From positions 1 through 57,653 of the forward strand of contig JAPOJR010000003.1 of assembly GCA_029978325.1 (NCBI GenBank): 57,653 bases of DNA, read 5' to 3'. The DNA is from Alphaproteobacteria bacterium (lineage in GTDB: Bacteria; Pseudomonadota; Alphaproteobacteria; Bin95). Position numbers and translations under genes: made by a program. How positions within the stretch are numbered: position 1 is the first letter of the stretch; the number at the start of each line of letters is the position of its first letter. Under the pieces are notes generated by a model. That model ran no database searches. It saw only the letters and a list, made by a program, of their open reading frames with translations, and was not told the DNA's origin. Below are positions 3,507 through 38,552 of this stretch, piece by piece.

Positions 3507-4220
3507 ATGAGAAGCACACGCGGGACCAGCGGGCGGGGCAGCCGCGACCTGACCGAACGGGTGCGCACTGCCCGGCGGCGGAGCAATTCGTCGACCCGAT
3601 GGCTGGAACGGCAACTGAACGATCCCTACGTGGCGGCTGCCAAGCGGGACGGCTATCTTAGCCGCGCGGCCTACAAGCTGATTCAGTTGGACGAGCGGTT
3701 CAAGCTGCTGAAGCGCAACATGCGCGTACTGGATCTGGGCGCTGCGCCCGGAGGATGGTGCCAGGTCGCAGTAGAGCGCCTGCAGGCAGCGAACAGCACC
3801 ATCGTGGGCGTGGATATTCTGCCGTTCGGTCCGATTCCCGGGGCCGATTGCCATGTCTTGGACGTCGAGACCCCGGATAGCGAAGTCCAAATGAAACAGT
3901 GGCTGGGTGGGCCTGCGGACCTGGTGCTGAGCGACATGGCGCCCTCAACAACGGGGCACCAGACCACCGACCAAATCCGCATTCTGGCCTTGGCGGAAGT
4001 GGCCTACGAGGTCGCCCAGGCGACTCTTGCCCCCGGCGGCGGATTCGTTGTCAAATTGTTCCAGGGCGGCGCCGTGGGCGAATTTCTGGCGGTGCTGAAG
4101 AAAGATTTTGCCACGGTGCGCCATGCGAAACCCGAGGCCAGTCGGAAAGATTCCTCGGAACTCTACCTGGTTGCCCAGGGCTACCGCGGCACTGTGCGCG
4201 ACGAGGATGAGACCTGTTAG
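3507..4220 (+). CDS. rlmE: 23S rRNA Um2552 2'-O-methyltransferase RlmE/FtsJ
   Basis: YLSRAAYKL, VLDLGAAPGGW, VLSDMAP, VVKLFQG, SRKDSSE motifs. Confidence 0.96.
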   Translation: MRSTRGTSGRGSRDLTERVRTARRRSNSSTRWLERQLNDPYVAAAKRDGYLSRAAYKLIQLDERFKLLKRNMRVLDLGAAPGGWCQVAVERLQAANSTIVGVDILPFGPIPGADCHVLDVETPDSEVQMKQWLGGPADLVLSDMAPSTTGHQTTDQIRILALAEVAYEVAQATLAPGGGFVVKLFQGGAVGEFLAVLKKDFATVRHAKPEASRKDSSELYLVAQGYRGTVRDEDETC

Positions 4221-7466: not shown

Positions 7467-7502
7467 CCTGGTAAACGGGGAAGACCTGGCGACCGGGAAG
7501 GT

Positions 7503-7560
7503 GCTCGCCATTCATAGAGTTAGAGCAGATCCCGATCCTATCGGATCGGGATCTGCTCTA
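7503..7560. repeat. Short palindromic intergenic repeat (copy 1)
   Basis: TAGAGCAGATCCCGATCC-TATC-GGATCGGGATCTGCTCTA (7521-7560) plus upstream GCTCGCCATTCATAGAGT; near-identical to 34611-34671. Confidence 0.9.
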
Positions 7561-7565
7561 AGGCG

Positions 7566-32705: not shown

Positions 32706-33530
32706 ATGCAACTCTCCCTCTCCGTCCGCGTCGCCGAGTCGCCCAAACGCAAGGACGTCGCCGATATTCCGATTGAAACCCTGGCGCCGCTGGCCAAAGC
32801 CGCCGGGTTCCGGGCGCTGTCCATGCGTGCATCGGTCGTTTCGGTCTCGTCCCCACCGGAACGGATCACAACCGTGCGGCGCGTACTGGAGCGCGAGGGG
32901 CTGGCCGTATCCATGGTCACCGGCGATATTCCGCTGGCGGCCAACAATGCCCAGGCGACGGATGCCATCCGCAATATCGCCCCTTACCTCAACCTGGCGG
33001 AGGCTTTGGATTGCCGCCTGGTCCGCATCATGACGCAACAGGAATCCGACATCGCCCTGGTCCAGCGCGCCGCGGACATCGCTGCCGAACGCGGCCTGAC
33101 GCTGGCCCACATGACCCATTGGGGCACGCTGATTGAGACCGTCGACGATGCCCTTCGCGTCGTCCAAGCCGTCAACCGCCCGAACTTCGGCATCGTTTAC
33201 GAGGCCGCCAACACCATGGCCTGCACCGCCGACTTCGACCCTGAGGCCGTGCGTCGCCTGGTGCCGCACCTGGTCAACGTCATGTTCCAGAATGTACACA
33301 AAGACCCGGCATCGCCCATCGGCTTCAAGTCCAACCGGCTGGGCCAGGTCGGCTTGCGCTATGTGCCGCTGCATGATCGAACCGAGTTGGACGCCGCCGC
33401 CATGGTCGAGGCGTTACGCGCCGAGGGCTATGCCGGTTGGATGACCGTGCACCAACCCCTGCGCGACGGGCAGACCGTGCCGGACGCGATTGCAGAGGCC
33501 GCAGCGGTTTTCGGGCCGCTGACAAGCTGA
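32706..33530 (+). CDS. Sugar-phosphate isomerase/epimerase-like TIM barrel (AP_endonuc_2), divergent
   Basis: Overall pattern (AKAAGF, GCRLVRI-like, PNFGIVYE, LRAEGYAG); metal-ligand positions altered. Confidence 0.75.
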   Translation: MQLSLSVRVAESPKRKDVADIPIETLAPLAKAAGFRALSMRASVVSVSSPPERITTVRRVLEREGLAVSMVTGDIPLAANNAQATDAIRNIAPYLNLAEALDCRLVRIMTQQESDIALVQRAADIAAERGLTLAHMTHWGTLIETVDDALRVVQAVNRPNFGIVYEAANTMACTADFDPEAVRRLVPHLVNVMFQNVHKDPASPIGFKSNRLGQVGLRYVPLHDRTELDAAAMVEALRAEGYAGWMTVHQPLRDGQTVPDAIAEAAAVFGPLTS

Positions 33531-33533
33531 CCG

Positions 33534-33884
33534 CTATTCGATCGGCACAAAGATCGAATGGCGCAATTGCCCGGCAATCGCCTTGGAGCAATGGCCTTTG
33601 CCATGGGTATCCTCGACCAGGATCACCTCTCCCGCCCCGATCACACGGGCCTCGCCGTCGCTGGCCGTGATCTGGACGCCGGCATCCAGGTTGATGATGT
33701 ACTGCCGCCGCGGCGCCGGGTGCCAGTCATAGTCATAGGTGCCGGGTGTTTCGCGAAAAATGATGCCGGTAGCCGGCAATGTCGCCGACGTCTGGCCGCC
33801 TGGCCCCTGGTTTTTCCACTCCACCTCGATATCGCGGAAATGGGATTCGCCCTGGTCATCGACGTAGAGATTATGAATGCGCAT
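33534..33884 (-). CDS. Cupin-fold protein
   Basis: DDQGESHF, WHPAPRRQ, LVEDTHGKGH. Confidence 0.8.
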   Translation of the reverse strand: MRIHNLYVDDQGESHFRDIEVEWKNQGPGGQTSATLPATGIIFRETPGTYDYDWHPAPRRQYIINLDAGVQITASDGEARVIGAGEVILVEDTHGKGHCSKAIAGQLRHSIFVPIE

Positions 33885-34145
33885 GCCTGTGGTCCTTGGC
33901 TGAACGAGATACCGGAGCTTACCCCAATCGCGAGGAAGCGCCAGCCCGACGCGACCGACACAAAATTTTTACATAACTGAAATATTCCCATTGACTCACA
34001 ACCACAGTGTGACAACATCAGTATACAGATCAACCGGATCCACCCCATCGCTGAAGAAGCGATCAGACAATCCAGGACAACGGTCGATCTGAAGCGCGGG
34101 CATGCTATCATGTCCGCATCCGATACCAGGAGGTATGCTAGCCGC

Positions 34146-34181
34146 ATGAGTCCACCTGCTTATCACCTGGGGTCGCTCTGA
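34146..34181 (+). CDS. Putative 11-aa small ORF MSPPAYHLGSL (module 1)
   Basis: GGAGG at 34129-34133; paralogous to modules 2 and 3 with the same length; translation unproven. Confidence 0.35.
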   Translation: MSPPAYHLGSL

Positions 34182-34276
34182 ACAGAACGGCCCAGCCCAA
34201 ACGATGATCGCATGAGCGTCAACGCTTTGGGCCTACCGAACACAGGATATTCCGTAACCTGGAGGATGCTCTGAGC

Positions 34277-34312
34277 ATGATTCCACCGGAACAGAACCTG
34301 GGGCTGCTTTAA
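34277..34312 (+). CDS. Putative 11-aa small ORF MIPPEQNLGLL (module 2)
   Basis: GGAGG at 34261-34265; same M-x-P-P start and stop position. Confidence 0.35.
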   Translation: MIPPEQNLGLL

Positions 34313-34404
34313 CGAGATCAGCCCGCCTTAACCGCCGGTTGCGACAGCGCTGACGGTAGGACATGAGATTTAAAGTGTTCCGTTGCCAGGAGGGTGCGTT
34401 TCGC

Positions 34405-34440
34405 ATGACCCCGCCGGATCAGGATCACCGCCCTTACTAA
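34405..34440 (+). CDS. Putative 11-aa small ORF MTPPDQDHRPY (module 3)
   Basis: GGAGG at 34389-34393; same M-x-P-P start and stop position. Confidence 0.35.
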   Translation: MTPPDQDHRPY

Positions 34441-34455
34441 AGCGTAAGGGCAAAA

Positions 34456-34508
34456 GCGCGGTGCGCACGCCGGAGGATTGTCCCGGTAGTGCCGCCGCGT
34501 TTTTTATT
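34456..34508 (+). terminator. Rho-independent terminator-like hairpin
   Basis: GCGCGGTG(C)GCACGCCGG...CCGGT(A)GTGCCGCCGCGT stem followed by TTTTTTATT; AAAA on the 5' side suggests it may act in both directions. Confidence 0.65.
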
Positions 34509-34568
34509 GCATTGTAACACCGCCCCCATCGAACGGACCGACCGACGATTTCAAGTGCGCCCTGCTGC

Positions 34569-34671
34569 TAGAGCAACGCCCGATCAAATGGAGTCATTTG
34601 ATCGGGCGTTGCTCGCCATTCATAGAGTTAGAGCGGATTCACCCGATCCTATCGGATCGGGATCTGCTCTA
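34569..34671. repeat. Composite palindromic intergenic repeat (two dyads; copy 2)
   Basis: GAGCAACGCCCGATCAAATG-GAGT-CATTTGATCGGGCGTTGCTC (34571-34614), then TAGAGCGGATTCACCCGATCCTATCGGATCGGGATCTGCTCTA (34629-34671). Confidence 0.9.
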
Positions 34672-37155
34672 AAGGCGCTCCGCCCGTAGACGCAACGCGT
34701 TGCCGATGACCGAGACGGAGGACAGGCTCATCGCCACCGCCGCAATCATCGGCGACAGCAGCAATCCGAAGACCGGATACAACACGCCCGCTGCAATAGG
34801 AACGCCGACGCCGTTGTAGCAAAAGGCAAAGAAGAGGTTTTGCCGGATATTGCGCATCGTTGCGCCCGCAAGCCGCCGGGCCCGTACGATACCCGTCAAA
34901 TCACCCTTTACCAAAGTAATGCCAGCGCTTTCCATCGCCACATCAGCGCCGGAGCCCATCGCGATCCCTACATCGGCCGCGGCCAAAGCCGGCGCATCGT
35001 TGATGCCGTCACCGGCCATGGCCACTTTGAATCCCTGCCGATGCAAGGTATCGACCAACTCCCGCTTCGCCGCCGGGCTGGCATCAGCGTGAACCTCGTC
35101 TATGCCAAGTCGTTCTGCAATGGCATTGGCCGTGCGCTGGCTATCGCCTGTCGCCATGACGATGCGCAAGCCCGTAGCCCTGAGGCTTTGCAGCGCTTGC
35201 AGCGTCGTCGCCTTGATGGGATCGGCGACGGCAATGATCCCGGAGATGACGCCATCCACCGCAACGAACATCGCAGATTTACCCTCCACTTGCAGCGCCT
35301 CTGCGCGCGCAGCCTGTTCTGCGCTCGCGCCGCCAAAGCCGGCCATCATGGCCCGGTTGCCCAAAGCCACGGCCATGCCATCCACCGAACCCCGGACACC
35401 CTGGCCCACCATCGCCTCAAACTCTGAAACCGGAAGACGTTCAGCGCCCTGCGCTTCCGCCCCGGCGACAATCGCTTCCGCCAGCGGATGCTCCGAGCCC
35501 CGCTCCAGCGCCGCCGCCAATGCCAGCAAGCGCTGCTCGTCGAGCCCGCCAAAAGCTAGCACGTCGGTCAACGCAGGCTTGCCTTCCGTCAATGTCCCGG
35601 TCTTGTCGACCACCAATACGTCCACGCCGGCAAACCGCTCCAGCGCTTCGGCATCCCGAATCAGGATACCGGCCTGCGCGCCGCGGCCGGTCGCCACCAT
35701 GATCGACATCGGCGTCGCCAGGCCCAGGGCGCAGGGACAGGCGATGATCAGCACGCTCACCGCCGCCACCACCGCATAACTCAGCGCCGGCGCCGGCCCG
35801 AACGCCACCCAGCCGAAGAACGCCAGCACCGCAACGCTCACCACCGCCGGCACGAACCAACCGGCGACCTTGTCGGCCATCGCCTGAATCGGCGCGCGGC
35901 TGCGTTGCGCGCTGGCGACCATGGTAACGATGCGGGCAAGCATGGTCTCCGCCCCTACTCGCTCCGCCCGCATCAGGAAGGAGCCGGTCTTGTTCAGCGT
36001 GCCACCGGTCACAGCATCGCCAGCGGTCTTTTCCACTGGCAGAGGCTCGCCCGTCAGCATGCTTTCGTCGATAGCGGAATGCCCCTCGGTCACGCTGCCA
36101 TCGACCGGCACGCTTTCGCCCGGCCGCACCCGCAGCAAATCACCGGCCTTGACCTGATCCAGCGGCACGTCCCGCTCATCGGAACCGGACACGACCCGTG
36201 CCGTTTTTGGCGCAAGGTTCAGCAAGGCCCGAATGGCGTCGCCGGTGCGCTCTCTCGCCGTCAATTCCATCACCTGCCCGAACAGCACCAGGATCAGGAT
36301 CACCGCAGCCGCCTCGAAATAGACCGGCGGCATCCCATGCGCTGTGCGCAGTGAAGCCGGGAACACGCCGGGCAGCAGCACACTTGCCAGACTGAACAGA
36401 TAGGCCGCGCCGGTGCCGATGGCGATCAATGTCCACATGTTGAAATTGCCGGTGCGGATCGACGACCAGCCGCGCTTGAAAAATGGCGCGCCGATCCAGA
36501 CCACCACCGGCGTCGCCAGCAGCAATTGCAGCCAGACGTGCACCTGCGGCCCCAGCCAGTGCGCAATCGGAATGCCGGTATGGCTGCCCATTTCCAGCAC
36601 AAGCACCGCCAGAGCCAGAGGCGCGCCCAGCCAAAGCCGCCGCCGGAAATCCACCAATTCCGGATTGGGTCCGGCATCGGCGGTCGGCGTCATCGGCTCC
36701 AAGGCCATGCCGCAGATCGGACAATCACCGAATTCCTCGGTGACGATCTCTGGGTCCATCGGACAAGTGTAGAGCGTCCCTGCCGGCATTGGCTCCGGCT
36801 CCGGCCGGTCGCCCAACCAGGTCTCCGGATCGGCTTCAAAACGCGATAGGCATCCGCCAGAGCAAAAATAGAACCGCTCGCCCGCATGCTTGGCCATGTG
36901 CTTGGCAGTGGCGCGGAACACGGTCATGCCGCACACAGGATCGGTAGCCTCGATAAACGGCTCCGGCTCCGCTATGAACCGGTCATGGCACCGTGTTGCG
37001 CAAAAATGGAACAGATGCCCAGCATGCTCCGCCGACGGCTTGCCCGCGTGAGGATCGACGGTCATGCCGCAGACCGGGTCGCGGGTGACAGATTCAGAAC
37101 GATGAGCAGATGCGCACACAGGCGTTTTCCTCATATGCGAAAGGAAGCCAGTCAT
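34669..37155 (-). CDS. copA: Cu(I)-translocating P1B-type ATPase with two YHS domains (start may be 37134 or later)
   Basis: DPVCGM x2, [34 protein letters not shown] and MSLSS TM ligands. Confidence 0.93.
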
Positions 37156-37277: not shown

Positions 37278-38552
37278 ATGAAGTTTCTCTGGTTCCATCT
37301 GATGCCCTACACGGAATTGCCGGACGATTTTCGCGAGCACAATCCCTCGGTCTGGGTCGACATCCATTCGACCTTGTTCAAGCCCGAACGCGCCCACCTG
37401 ATGTACAACGACTTCCTGGATGAGCTGGAATACGCCGCTGACGTCGGCTTTGACGCCATCTGCTGCAACGAGCACCACTCGAACGGCTATGGCCTGATGC
37501 CGAGCCCGAATCTGATCGCCTCCGCCCTAGCCAGGCGCACCAAGCAGGTGCCGATCTGCGTCATGGGCAACAGCCTAGCCCTCTACGACCCGCCGACCCG
37601 CGTCGCCGAAGAGTTCGCGATGATCGACGTCATCAGCGGCGGCCGCCTGATCGCCGGCTTCCCGGTCGGCACGCCGATGGATACCTGCTTCGCCTATGGC
37701 CAGAACCCCTCCATGCTGCGCGAGAAGTATATGGAGGCGCACGACCTCATCATCAAAGCCTGGACCGAGCCGGAGACCTTCAGCTTCAACGGCCGCTTCA
37801 ACCAGCAGCGCTACGTCAATATCTGGCCCCGCCCGATCCAAAAGCCGCACCCGCCGATCTGGATTCCGGGCGGTGGCTCGGTCGAGACCTGGCGCTGGTG
37901 CGCGGAGATGGACTATGTCTACTCCTACCTCAGCTATTACGGCTACAAGGCCGGCATGGCGACGATGAAGGGCTTCTGGGAGGAGATGAAAAAGCTCGGC
38001 AAGGAGCCGAACCCCTACATGGCCGGCTTTGCCCAGGCCATCGGCGTGGCGGAGACCGAGAAAGAGGCGCTTGAACTTTACAAGGAGCCGGCGGAATACT
38101 TCTTCGACAAATGCCTGCACGTCGATGCCCGCTTTGCGGCACCGCCCGGCTATGTAACGGAAGCGACGCAGCGCGCCGGCCTGGAAAGCCAGATTGGCCG
38201 CGCCTCACAGACCCTGAACGCCGCGGCGGCGCAGCGCGCCATCTCCAAAACGGCGCGTGAGTTCCCGGCGATTTTGGAGAATGGCTATGTCATCGTCGGC
38301 AGCCCGGACCAGGTGGCGGAGCAGTTGCGCGAACTGGCCAAGGAACTGCATGTCGGCCATCTGATGTGCCTGCTGCAGTTCGGCAACATGAACAAACAGC
38401 TAACCCAGTACAACACCCGCGTCTTCGCCGAGAAGGTCATGCCGCAACTGCAGGACCTGTTCAAAGACGAGTGGGAGGACCGCTGGTGGCCCAAACCGCT
38501 GGCCGCAGCCGACACCGCCACTCCGGCGCGGACGACGCTAGCCGCGGAATAG
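37278..38552 (+). CDS. LLM class flavin-dependent oxidoreductase
   Basis: CNEHH, PSPNL, RVAEEFAMIDVISGGRL, WPRPIQKPHPPIW. Confidence 0.93.
   Translation: MKFLWFHLMPYTELPDDFREHNPSVWVDIHSTLFKPERAHLMYNDFLDELEYAADVGFDAICCNEHHSNGYGLMPSPNLIASALARRTKQVPICVMGNSLALYDPPTRVAEEFAMIDVISGGRLIAGFPVGTPMDTCFAYGQNPSMLREKYMEAHDLIIKAWTEPETFSFNGRFNQQRYVNIWPRPIQKPHPPIWIPGGGSVETWRWCAEMDYVYSYLSYYGYKAGMATMKGFWEEMKKLGKEPNPYMAGFAQAIGVAETEKEALELYKEPAEYFFDKCLHVDARFAAPPGYVTEATQRAGLESQIGRASQTLNAAAAQRAISKTAREFPAILENGYVIVGSPDQVAEQLRELAKELHVGHLMCLLQFGNMNKQLTQYNTRVFAEKVMPQLQDLFKDEWEDRWWPKPLAAADTATPARTTLAAE

Follow-up and report, generated by a model that had tools for sequence, protein, structure and literature searches.

Between positions 33885 and 34668 of a 57,653-nucleotide contig from an alphaproteobacterium (GenBank JAPOJR010000003.1; the whole stretch is called the window below) lies an intergenic gap bordered by two genes on the minus strand. 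One is a 116-amino-acid open reading frame (ORF; 33534-33884), the other an 828-amino-acid P-type ATPase with YHS, TRASH and HMBD domains (34669-37155). The gene list agrees here with the first-pass annotation of this DNA, which had placed both flanks on the minus strand and had proposed a stand-alone, structured plus-strand RNA gene of about 480 nt in the gap. Folding, a conserved promoter-like box and terminator, and orthologues all support such a gene, and from sequence we take the gap to encode one independently transcribed plus-strand RNA of ~480 nt (~34026-34505). This predicted RNA is laid out as a 5′ domain (stems P1 and P2), three tandem modules and an intrinsic terminator (Table 1). 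The three ~130-nt modules are its conserved core: in each, a hairpin locks up AGGAGG and AUG, and an M-x-P-P frame of 11 codons comes next. No plus-strand gene to which the RNA could belong is present up- or downstream, the nearest one starting at 37278, and the longer ORFs across the gap (168, 56 and 57 amino acids on the minus strand; 44 and 66 on the plus strand) match no Pfam family above noise.

The 483-nt plus-strand sequence folds with a predicted energy of -193.2 kcal/mol, compared with -163.1 ± 7.0 kcal/mol for dinucleotide-shuffled controls (z = -4.31), and 0 of 100 shuffles folded as well. All of the stems that had been picked out by eye are present at their places in the sequence and in the minimum-energy fold. 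Homologs provide covariation: in a consensus fold of three orthologues (G000, G005 and G008), 11 of 160 pairs are changed on both sides and about 20 show one-sided wobble changes. Among the two-sided examples are a G-C pair replaced by A-U in P2 and, in P1, U-A pairs replaced by A-U or C-G. The compensatory changes of G008 comprise UA to AU, UA to CG and a UA/UG/CG series in P1, and G-C to A-U and G-U to A-U in P2. Ten consensus pairs are most commonly G-U or U-G, which would be A-C on the minus strand, in line with the earlier argument that the wobble pairs favour a plus-strand RNA. A minus-strand RNA was rejected on these grounds, on its weaker folding score (z = -2.94 for the minus strand of the gap), and because the promoter-like box, Shine-Dalgarno sequences, AUGs and terminator all lie on the plus strand. 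The initial proposal of a structured RNA therefore stands as far as the fold is real, but the overall fold is not conserved beyond the genus; what is conserved there is a module of ~45 nt, present three times. P1, P2 and the spacer hairpins are specific to the G000 clade.

The first-pass annotation had noted TTGACT at 33991 but no -10 element at canonical spacing. The former is confirmed; the latter is amended by a weak AACATC 17 nt downstream. The homologues of the genus all carry TTGACA-N17-AAnaTn at the same place (G005, G008, G001, G009, G003 and G002), which explains the apparent absence of a -10, and transcription would start near 34026. In the alignment of orthologues, the TTGAC -35 and an AACAT-type -10 are preserved 17 nt apart, together with every stem and with the terminator and its run of T. 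The terminator forms in the minimum-energy fold and is retained in G005 and G008 with one-sided wobble changes.

Table 1. Features of the predicted RNA and its putative transcription signals.
Feature	Position	Strand	Sequence and structure
Promoter-like box	33991-34019	+	-35 TTGACT 33991-33996, 17-nt spacer, weak -10 AACATC 34014-34019
P1, long irregular stem-loop	34026-34091	+	CAGATC-A-ACCG...CGGT-C-GATCTG; inner hairpin ATCGCT-GAAGA-AGCGAT; minimum-energy fold
P2, 9-bp hairpin	34096-34117	+	GCGGGCATG-CTAT-CATGTCCGC; minimum-energy fold
Module 1	34119-34158	+	UCCG-N3-CC lead, AGGAGG 34128-34133, AUGC-loop-GCAU; AUG 34146 paired or flanked by CCACC
Mini-ORF 1	34146-34181	+	MSPPAYHLGSL + TGA, 11 codons
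Stop hairpin 1	34170-34193	+	Last codons form the 5′ arm; TGA straddles the arm/loop border; G-C to A-U in G008
Spacer hairpin 1	34195-34232	+	GCCCAAA...TTTGGGC; two pairs changed on both sides
Module 2	34251-34288	+	UCCG lead, UGGAGG 34260-34265, AUGCU-CUG-AGCAU, AUG 34277; seen in repeats, covariance models and fold
Mini-ORF 2	34277-34312	+	MIPPEQNLGLL + TAA, 11 codons
Stop hairpin 2	34301-34324	+	TAA at the 5′ edge of the loop
Spacer hairpin 2	34326-34360	+	CCUUAACCG...CGGUAGG (CCT..ACCG/CGGT.AGG); minimum-energy and consensus folds
Module 3	34379-34416	+	UCCG lead, AGGAGG 34388-34393, GUGCG-UUU-CGCAU, AUG 34405; covariance models and fold
Mini-ORF 3	34405-34440	+	MTPPDQDHRPY + TAA, 11 codons
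Stop hairpin 3, 8 bp	34430-34451	+	GCCCUUAC-UAAAGC-GUAAGGGC; TAA is the first three bases of the loop
Intrinsic terminator	34456-34505	+	~20-bp interrupted G+C-rich stem 34456-34499, then TTTTTT 34500-34505

Three modules and their mini-ORFs

Two direct-repeat blocks (D1 and D2) recur three times in the RNA, every 128-132 nt, with the consensus UCCG-N3-CC-W-GGAGG-(N)-RUGC-loop-GCAUGA-NN-CCRCC. In the predicted module folds, GGAGG pairs with the CCNCC of codons 3-4, so that the initiation site would be locked by its own first codons, and the inner helix takes in the A and U of the AUG. Two outer helices can be drawn, GG-A-GG/CC-A-CC or GGAG/CUCC. Since the 3′ side of the hairpin is made up of codons 2-4 (A-CUCC/UCC-A-CC), the frame reads M-(T/S/I)-P-P. 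Module 1 scores 83 and 62 bits with our two covariance models, R1 and R2, and module 3 fits the family-wide pattern GGAGGRTG-N7-9-CATGASYCCNCCG described below.

The frames that follow are constant in length within the clade. Mini-ORF 1 is equally long in G005 (MSPPAYHLGLL) and G008 (MSPPAYHLRSL); in G008, mini-ORF 2 reads MVPPAQHLGLL, with three synonymous Leu changes, and mini-ORF 3 reads MTPPDQKHRPY, TAA being replaced by TAG in both. All six further frames of G005 and G008 have 11 codons, and together with G001 the clade has exactly 11 codons in 11 of 11 units despite the divergence of the paralogues. Moreover, the stop codon lies at the 5′ edge of the next hairpin loop in 8/8 units of the G000 clade including G001.

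Within mini-ORF 3, positions 34420-34436 read GGAUCACCGCCCUUACU, which matches the 3′ end of 16S rRNA, GGAUCACCUCCUUUCU, at 14 of 17 positions. The stretch may provide a further strand of anti-Shine-Dalgarno type. Unit 1 reads AUCACCU at the corresponding site, and the feature is not family-wide.

Distribution in the genus and across Alphaproteobacteria

BLAST against 61 related genomes recovered the complete element from two further species of the genus, G005 (94% identity) and G008 (72%); shared flanking genes were confirmed for G008. Searches with R1 and then R2 recovered 2-3 tandem units in 7 of the genus's 10 genomes, always at a single locus and with no match outside it, and detected no units in the other two genera of the family, which makes up the whole order. 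Four more distant carriers within the genus (G001, G009, G003 and G002) have different neighbours around the locus and keep the promoter-like box and the terminator. Their frames (MTPPGYKNPLR, MTLPDCQNLPR, MTPPASFE, MTLPDYQKGA, MTPPAQQN, MTLPDYK, MTPPAYYG and MILPDGQKRAVPKGIGG) span 7-17 codons, and only M-(T/S/I)-(P/L)-P-x is kept across the genus. In G009, the stretch 3′ of the two modules (L008:1670-1710) contains GAGGAAGCCUAG-AUG-UAC-CCG-CCU... (MYPPSKVD), which may be a degenerate third module and is not kept in G003 or G002.

A covariance-model search of a sample of 400 genomes of the class gave weak matches in another family that share the same core, ...CCAGGGAGGGUGAGUAAGAUCAUGACUCCACCGG..., and the module takes the family-wide form AGGAGGGUG-N7-9-C AUG ACU CCA CCG. 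When the strict pattern GGAGGRTG-N7-9-CATGASYCCNCCG was scanned on one genome per prokaryotic species, at least 119 stretches matched, and about 108 of those listed are from Alphaproteobacteria. Carriers among the matches listed include Azospirillum, Nitrospirillum, Skermanella, Arenibaculum, Dongia, Defluviicoccus, Stellaceae, Acetobacteraceae, Geminicoccaceae and many metagenome-assembled genomes. Across an even sample of 401 genomes of the class, the pattern occurs in 15 genomes from 7 of ~208 family labels, and its reversed control in 0.

The loci of this wider family look, by their sequence, like small-RNA genes: within ~250-300 nt, a CTTGAC-N17 box leads into a 5′ region, after which come a single module or sometimes a pair, more hairpins and a terminator rich in G+C. 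The module is thus the defining element of a small-RNA-like gene family. Among the matches listed, 100 of 108 loci hold one module, 7 hold two and 1 holds three (as separate genes), and the G000 clade, with its three-module transcript, goes furthest in multiplication. Tandem copies occur in Azospirillum, where every copy has a promoter-like box and a terminator to itself. In one such genome (L041; G092:C1:2334610-2337689, minus strand), two single-module copies with their own CTTGAC boxes and terminators lie ~335 nt apart, and a third copy is found elsewhere on the same replicon; these are separate genes, as opposed to the fused modules of the G000 clade. Pairing within the module is maintained across the family, with 99.1% of cells paired versus 94.3% in shuffles, and the closing pair of the inner helix covaries (CG 42, AU 14, UA 11, UG 4, GC 2).

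Probable translation of the mini-ORFs and alternative readings

Every unit retrieved by covariance model has an AUG, which the model does not force, and the G of this AUG is invariant though unpaired in both candidate foldings. We counted reading frames on 73 dereplicated units of the family. In the AUG frame (frame 0), a median of 6 codons separates position +12 from the first stop, versus 20 and 18 codons in the other frames, and the stop is reached within 4 codons in 35 of 73 units in frame 0, versus 11 and 7 units in the others. Stops are most often found at codon 8, as TGA (18), TAG (6) or TAA (2). Three units (L065, L143 and L146), each the first at its locus, are without the canonical AUG and have one three codons upstream, at normal Shine-Dalgarno spacing and in frame with TPPD/G; their frames are MEDATPPGQHLGA (MEDATPPG...), MSNLTPPDG... 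and MTIETPPDG..., respectively.

Two details of these loci may be added. The displaced-AUG unit of L065 lies upstream of another unit at reverse-complement position 3582, and in both L143 and L146 the first frame runs to a stop within the stretch that separates Shine-Dalgarno sequence and AUG in the second module, an arrangement that suggests translational coupling.

Because the conserved part is a Shine-Dalgarno/AUG hairpin together with a mini-ORF, the RNA probably engages ribosomes and is not purely non-coding. In our reading the frame is translated, and selection would act on the start, on the first codons, which double as the anti-Shine-Dalgarno strand, and on the early stop, not on the product. 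On balance we lean towards a ribosome-engaging small RNA with three self-sequestered start sites and mini-frames, in which the act of translation matters and the peptide does not. Transcription, actual translation and any downstream effect of the RNA we infer from sequence. Each module would be a self-sequestered, very strong translation-initiation site; ribosomes would open its hairpin and translate the tiny frame, and the effect would come from ribosome occupancy and the melting of downstream hairpins, the peptide itself probably being of no consequence. In the G000 clade, ribosomes would unwind the next hairpin, in which the end of the frame supplies the 5′ arm. The RNA's own translation would then govern its conformation, its stability or its ability to pair.

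Several observations weigh against this interpretation. Codons 2 and 3 are nearly invariant where the search pattern left them free (ACT in 64/73 units, CCA in 64/73), and since this includes their wobble positions, constraint at the RNA level alone could yield 'MTPP'. The predicted hairpin ties up both the Shine-Dalgarno sequence and the AUG in base pairs, and at 11-13 nt the distance between them is long. Taken singly, the modules are barely more stable than their shuffles (z = -0.9, -1.6 and -2.4). Placement of the stop in a hairpin loop does not extend to the family, where it was rejected as a rule (29% versus 23% at control positions, without enrichment). A scan of the gap with a simple consensus tool picks up no promoter and no terminator, so that both assignments rest on conservation. 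Finally, the analysis identified no target, partner or phenotype for the RNA.

Some of these points would be expected of a purely non-coding structured small RNA whose AGGAGG...AUGACUCCACC hairpin is never translated and serves as a recognition element, either for a protein or as a sponge or decoy for an anti-Shine-Dalgarno small RNA. The invariant wobble positions, the sequestration of Shine-Dalgarno and AUG in a hairpin supported by covariation, and the small-RNA-like architecture with its own promoter-like box and terminator all agree with it. So does the fate of the peptide, which is not conserved across the family after MTPPx: the downstream hairpin GUUGCCGAY...RUCGGCAAC is read as VAD..GIG, as LPTPWHRQ, or lies behind the stop, according to subfamily. 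A recognition element that is never translated would not account, however, for early stops with interchangeable stop codons that are enriched in frame 0 only, for the invariant yet unpaired G of the AUG, for displaced AUGs that remain in frame, or for the exact 11-codon length of all units in the G000 clade, and no partner for it was identified. We therefore judge it unlikely, though worth keeping in view.

The same frame data could instead be taken to mean that the RNA is a tricistronic messenger for three 11-residue peptides, either micropeptides that serve in signalling or regulation or precursors. All three frames open with an AUG behind a strong Shine-Dalgarno sequence, the 11-codon length is conserved, the three synonymous Leu changes in ORF2 and the TAA-to-TAG replacement between G000 and G008 would fit selection on a product, and a 'PPxQ(H/N)LG' likeness joins units 1 and 2 with L065. 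Those synonymous changes sit in a hairpin arm, however, so that pairing explains them as well, and across the genus frame length varies between 7 and 17 codons with only M-(T/S/I)-(P/L)-P-x kept. Across the family, everything past residue 5 varies or shifts frame; because the downstream hairpin is read in different frames or after the stop, the peptide beyond that residue is not under selection. No gene for a modifying enzyme, exporter or receptor travels with the RNA, and the neighbours differ between clades. A role for the peptides as such is quite improbable.

The paired prolines raise a further alternative, in which each mini-ORF acts in the style of a leader peptide as a sensor of prolyl-tRNA or EF-P status, and a pause at Pro-Pro, or its release, remodels the downstream hairpins and the terminator. 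Every unit has Pro-Pro (or Leu-Pro) at codons 3-4, and stop hairpin 3 directly adjoins the terminator. Asp, Gly or Asn follows PP in 35/73 units, and these residues enhance diprolyl stalling in Escherichia coli (PMC4176338). EF-P-dependent coupling of transcription and translation at leader peptides provides a precedent (PMC5021804). The case for strong polyproline stalling is nevertheless weakened, and we set it aside, since Thr before the prolines is a weak context at XPPP motifs in E. coli: with the NlpD reporter it gave the weakest XPPP stalling, and TPPP stalled weakly with either of the two reporters (PMC4176338). Moreover, the hairpin's need of an anti-Shine-Dalgarno strand can account for the prolines, no gene in the same orientation lies downstream, the next gene being convergent, and no alternative antiterminator has covariation support. 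A 6-bp CACCGC:GCGGUG alternative pairing can be drawn by eye; it is invariant between orthologues, so that covariation cannot support it. Given the weak Thr context and the explanation of the prolines by pairing, we keep the EF-P/prolyl-tRNA sensor only as a very doubtful, minor case.

The reading of a small RNA that acts by engaging ribosomes admits a more general form, which we offer tentatively because it, too, seems unlikely. The module might define an undescribed class of alphaproteobacterial riboregulators that act through being translated, in which a locked, very strong ribosome-binding site leads ribosomes into a mini-frame starting with M-T-P-P. Such an RNA would signal or react to the condition of the translation machinery (its initiation capacity, the activity of EF-P or the supply of prolyl-tRNA) by converting it into a change of its own structure, stability or pairing. 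The three-module transcript of the genus would then be a multiplied sensor.

Known systems, significance and neighbouring elements

The first-pass annotation had recognised no hallmark of tmRNA, RNase P, SRP or 6S RNA in the gap, and Rfam 15 scans bear this out. At gathering thresholds, cmscan of the window reports only a tRNA at 2211-2281, and a permissive scan of 33500-35000 gave nothing inside 34026-34508; no known family was found there, alpha-r, ROSE and Csr/Rsm families included. Eight homologous loci likewise have no Rfam match at E≤0.01. The sole nearby match to CcsR1 reaches 21 bits, where the gathering score is 65, and falls within the ATPase gene; we take it for a chance match, and CcsR/alpha-r14 was rejected as an assignment. 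Also rejected was a tRNA-acceptor-like reading of GGAG...CUCC-ACC, made by eye only, as its 4 bp carry too little information. A literature search (peptides, the core on both strands, and small RNAs of Azospirillum, Acetobacteraceae and Rhodospirillales), whose coverage is incomplete, found no description of the module, and the core is absent from the main text of the A. brasilense small-RNA catalogue. The modules thus look, by sequence, like an undescribed and uncatalogued family of mini-ORF-bearing small RNAs, here in triple form.

Repeated AGGA motifs would also be the hallmark of a CsrB/RsmZ-like sponge that titrates CsrA: each module has an AGGA/GGA, and three modules make a multi-site architecture. 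The genus is without CsrA, however (PF02599 is absent from 10/10 genomes, with control genomes positive), so the RNA is not a CsrA sponge. Furthermore, there is one GGA site per ~130 nt (the GGAGG sites are 128-132 nt apart), predicted in stems and not in loops, and no Csr/Rsm RNA of Rfam matches in the gap. We give this explanation next to no credence.

By analogy, the RNA would work most like a dual-function, small-ORF-bearing small RNA or a leader peptide without its gene, and its design resembles minigenes and start-stop sites. Dual-function small RNAs such as SgrS/SgrT and RNAIII/hld combine, as this element appears to, a short independently terminated transcript and a stable structure with a small Shine-Dalgarno/AUG frame; unlike in those, the frame here has 7-11 codons, of which the first 4-5 are conserved, and is repeated three times. 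A further example, rnTrpL/peTrpL of Sinorhizobium meliloti, derives from the attenuator upstream of trpE (PMC7968998). Unlike rnTrpL, the RNA described here has no downstream gene. No conserved single-stranded seed common to the family was identified.

Attenuators with proline-codon leader peptides, such as mgtP and mgtL in the Salmonella mgtCBR and mgtA leaders, likewise place a tiny frame with consecutive Pro codons just 5′ of hairpins and an intrinsic terminator. They differ in having a structural gene downstream on the same strand, whereas our element has none, nor a supported antiterminator, and carries three serial frames in a Thr-Pro-Pro context. The minigenes of phage lambda bar and the start-stops of E. 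coli also open frames too short for a conventional protein from unusually strong ribosome-binding sites, and we count the tandem arrangement of mini-frames on a terminated small transcript as a likeness to them. In contrast, the present frames have 7-11 codons or more, begin with a conserved M-T-P-P, and have their initiation site locked in a conserved hairpin.

Pairing of Shine-Dalgarno and start codon in a hairpin with small internal mismatches recalls ROSE and fourU thermometers. Those hairpins lie in the 5′ untranslated regions of heat-shock or virulence genes, whereas ours precedes only a 7-11-codon frame; moreover, the anti-Shine-Dalgarno strand is inside the frame and not upstream, and no ROSE family of Rfam matches. 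The alphaproteobacterial CCUCCUCCC small RNAs (CcsR/alpha-r14) are similar in often occurring as tandem copies and in Shine-Dalgarno/anti-Shine-Dalgarno pairing. Their polarity is opposite: here the module presents the Shine-Dalgarno-like strand, not CCUCC loops.

If this picture is true, several alphaproteobacterial families share a small-RNA family that is listed in no catalogue searched, with carriers that include the plant-associated Azospirillum and Nitrospirillum as well as Dongia, Stellaceae and Acetobacteraceae. Its sole universally conserved part, a hairpin-locked ribosome-binding site with a four-codon signature, points to regulation via the translation of a tiny frame, which is familiar in leader peptides and hardly in free-standing small RNAs. 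Azospirillum brasilense, A. lipoferum and Dongia mobilis are cultivable, genetically tractable carriers, and for annotation the pattern GGAGGRTG-N7-9-CATGASYCCNCCG is a precise new search handle.

The two genes that border the gap have features of their own. The ATPase looks like a copper exporter, and its N-terminus is uncommonly rich, with an HMBD domain, two YHS stretches and a weak match to TRASH. In G000, and to judge by position in G008 too, its gene converges on the RNA, which it does not adjoin in other members of the genus. The 116-amino-acid ORF is next to the RNA also in G008 (116 amino acids; L003:30-380). It matches no Pfam family even at E≤1, so the label 'cupin' given to it earlier is unconfirmed. 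A functional link of the RNA to the cupin-like gene or the copper ATPase was rejected because in G001, G009, G003 and G002 the RNA sits beside different genes.

Between the terminator of the RNA and the stop codon of the ATPase gene, positions 34568-34672 hold an element of ~105 nt with two palindromes, including a perfect 20-bp inverted repeat (34571-34614). It gave microRNA-like noise matches in the Rfam scans and is a dispersed repeat, with 79 matches in the genome, many of them on the reverse strand or partial at the same loci. The element looks like one of the repetitive extragenic palindrome/miniature inverted-repeat transposable element (REP/MITE) type; about 15 copies are near full length, at 85-97% identity, and a partial copy lies at 7502-7565 of the window.

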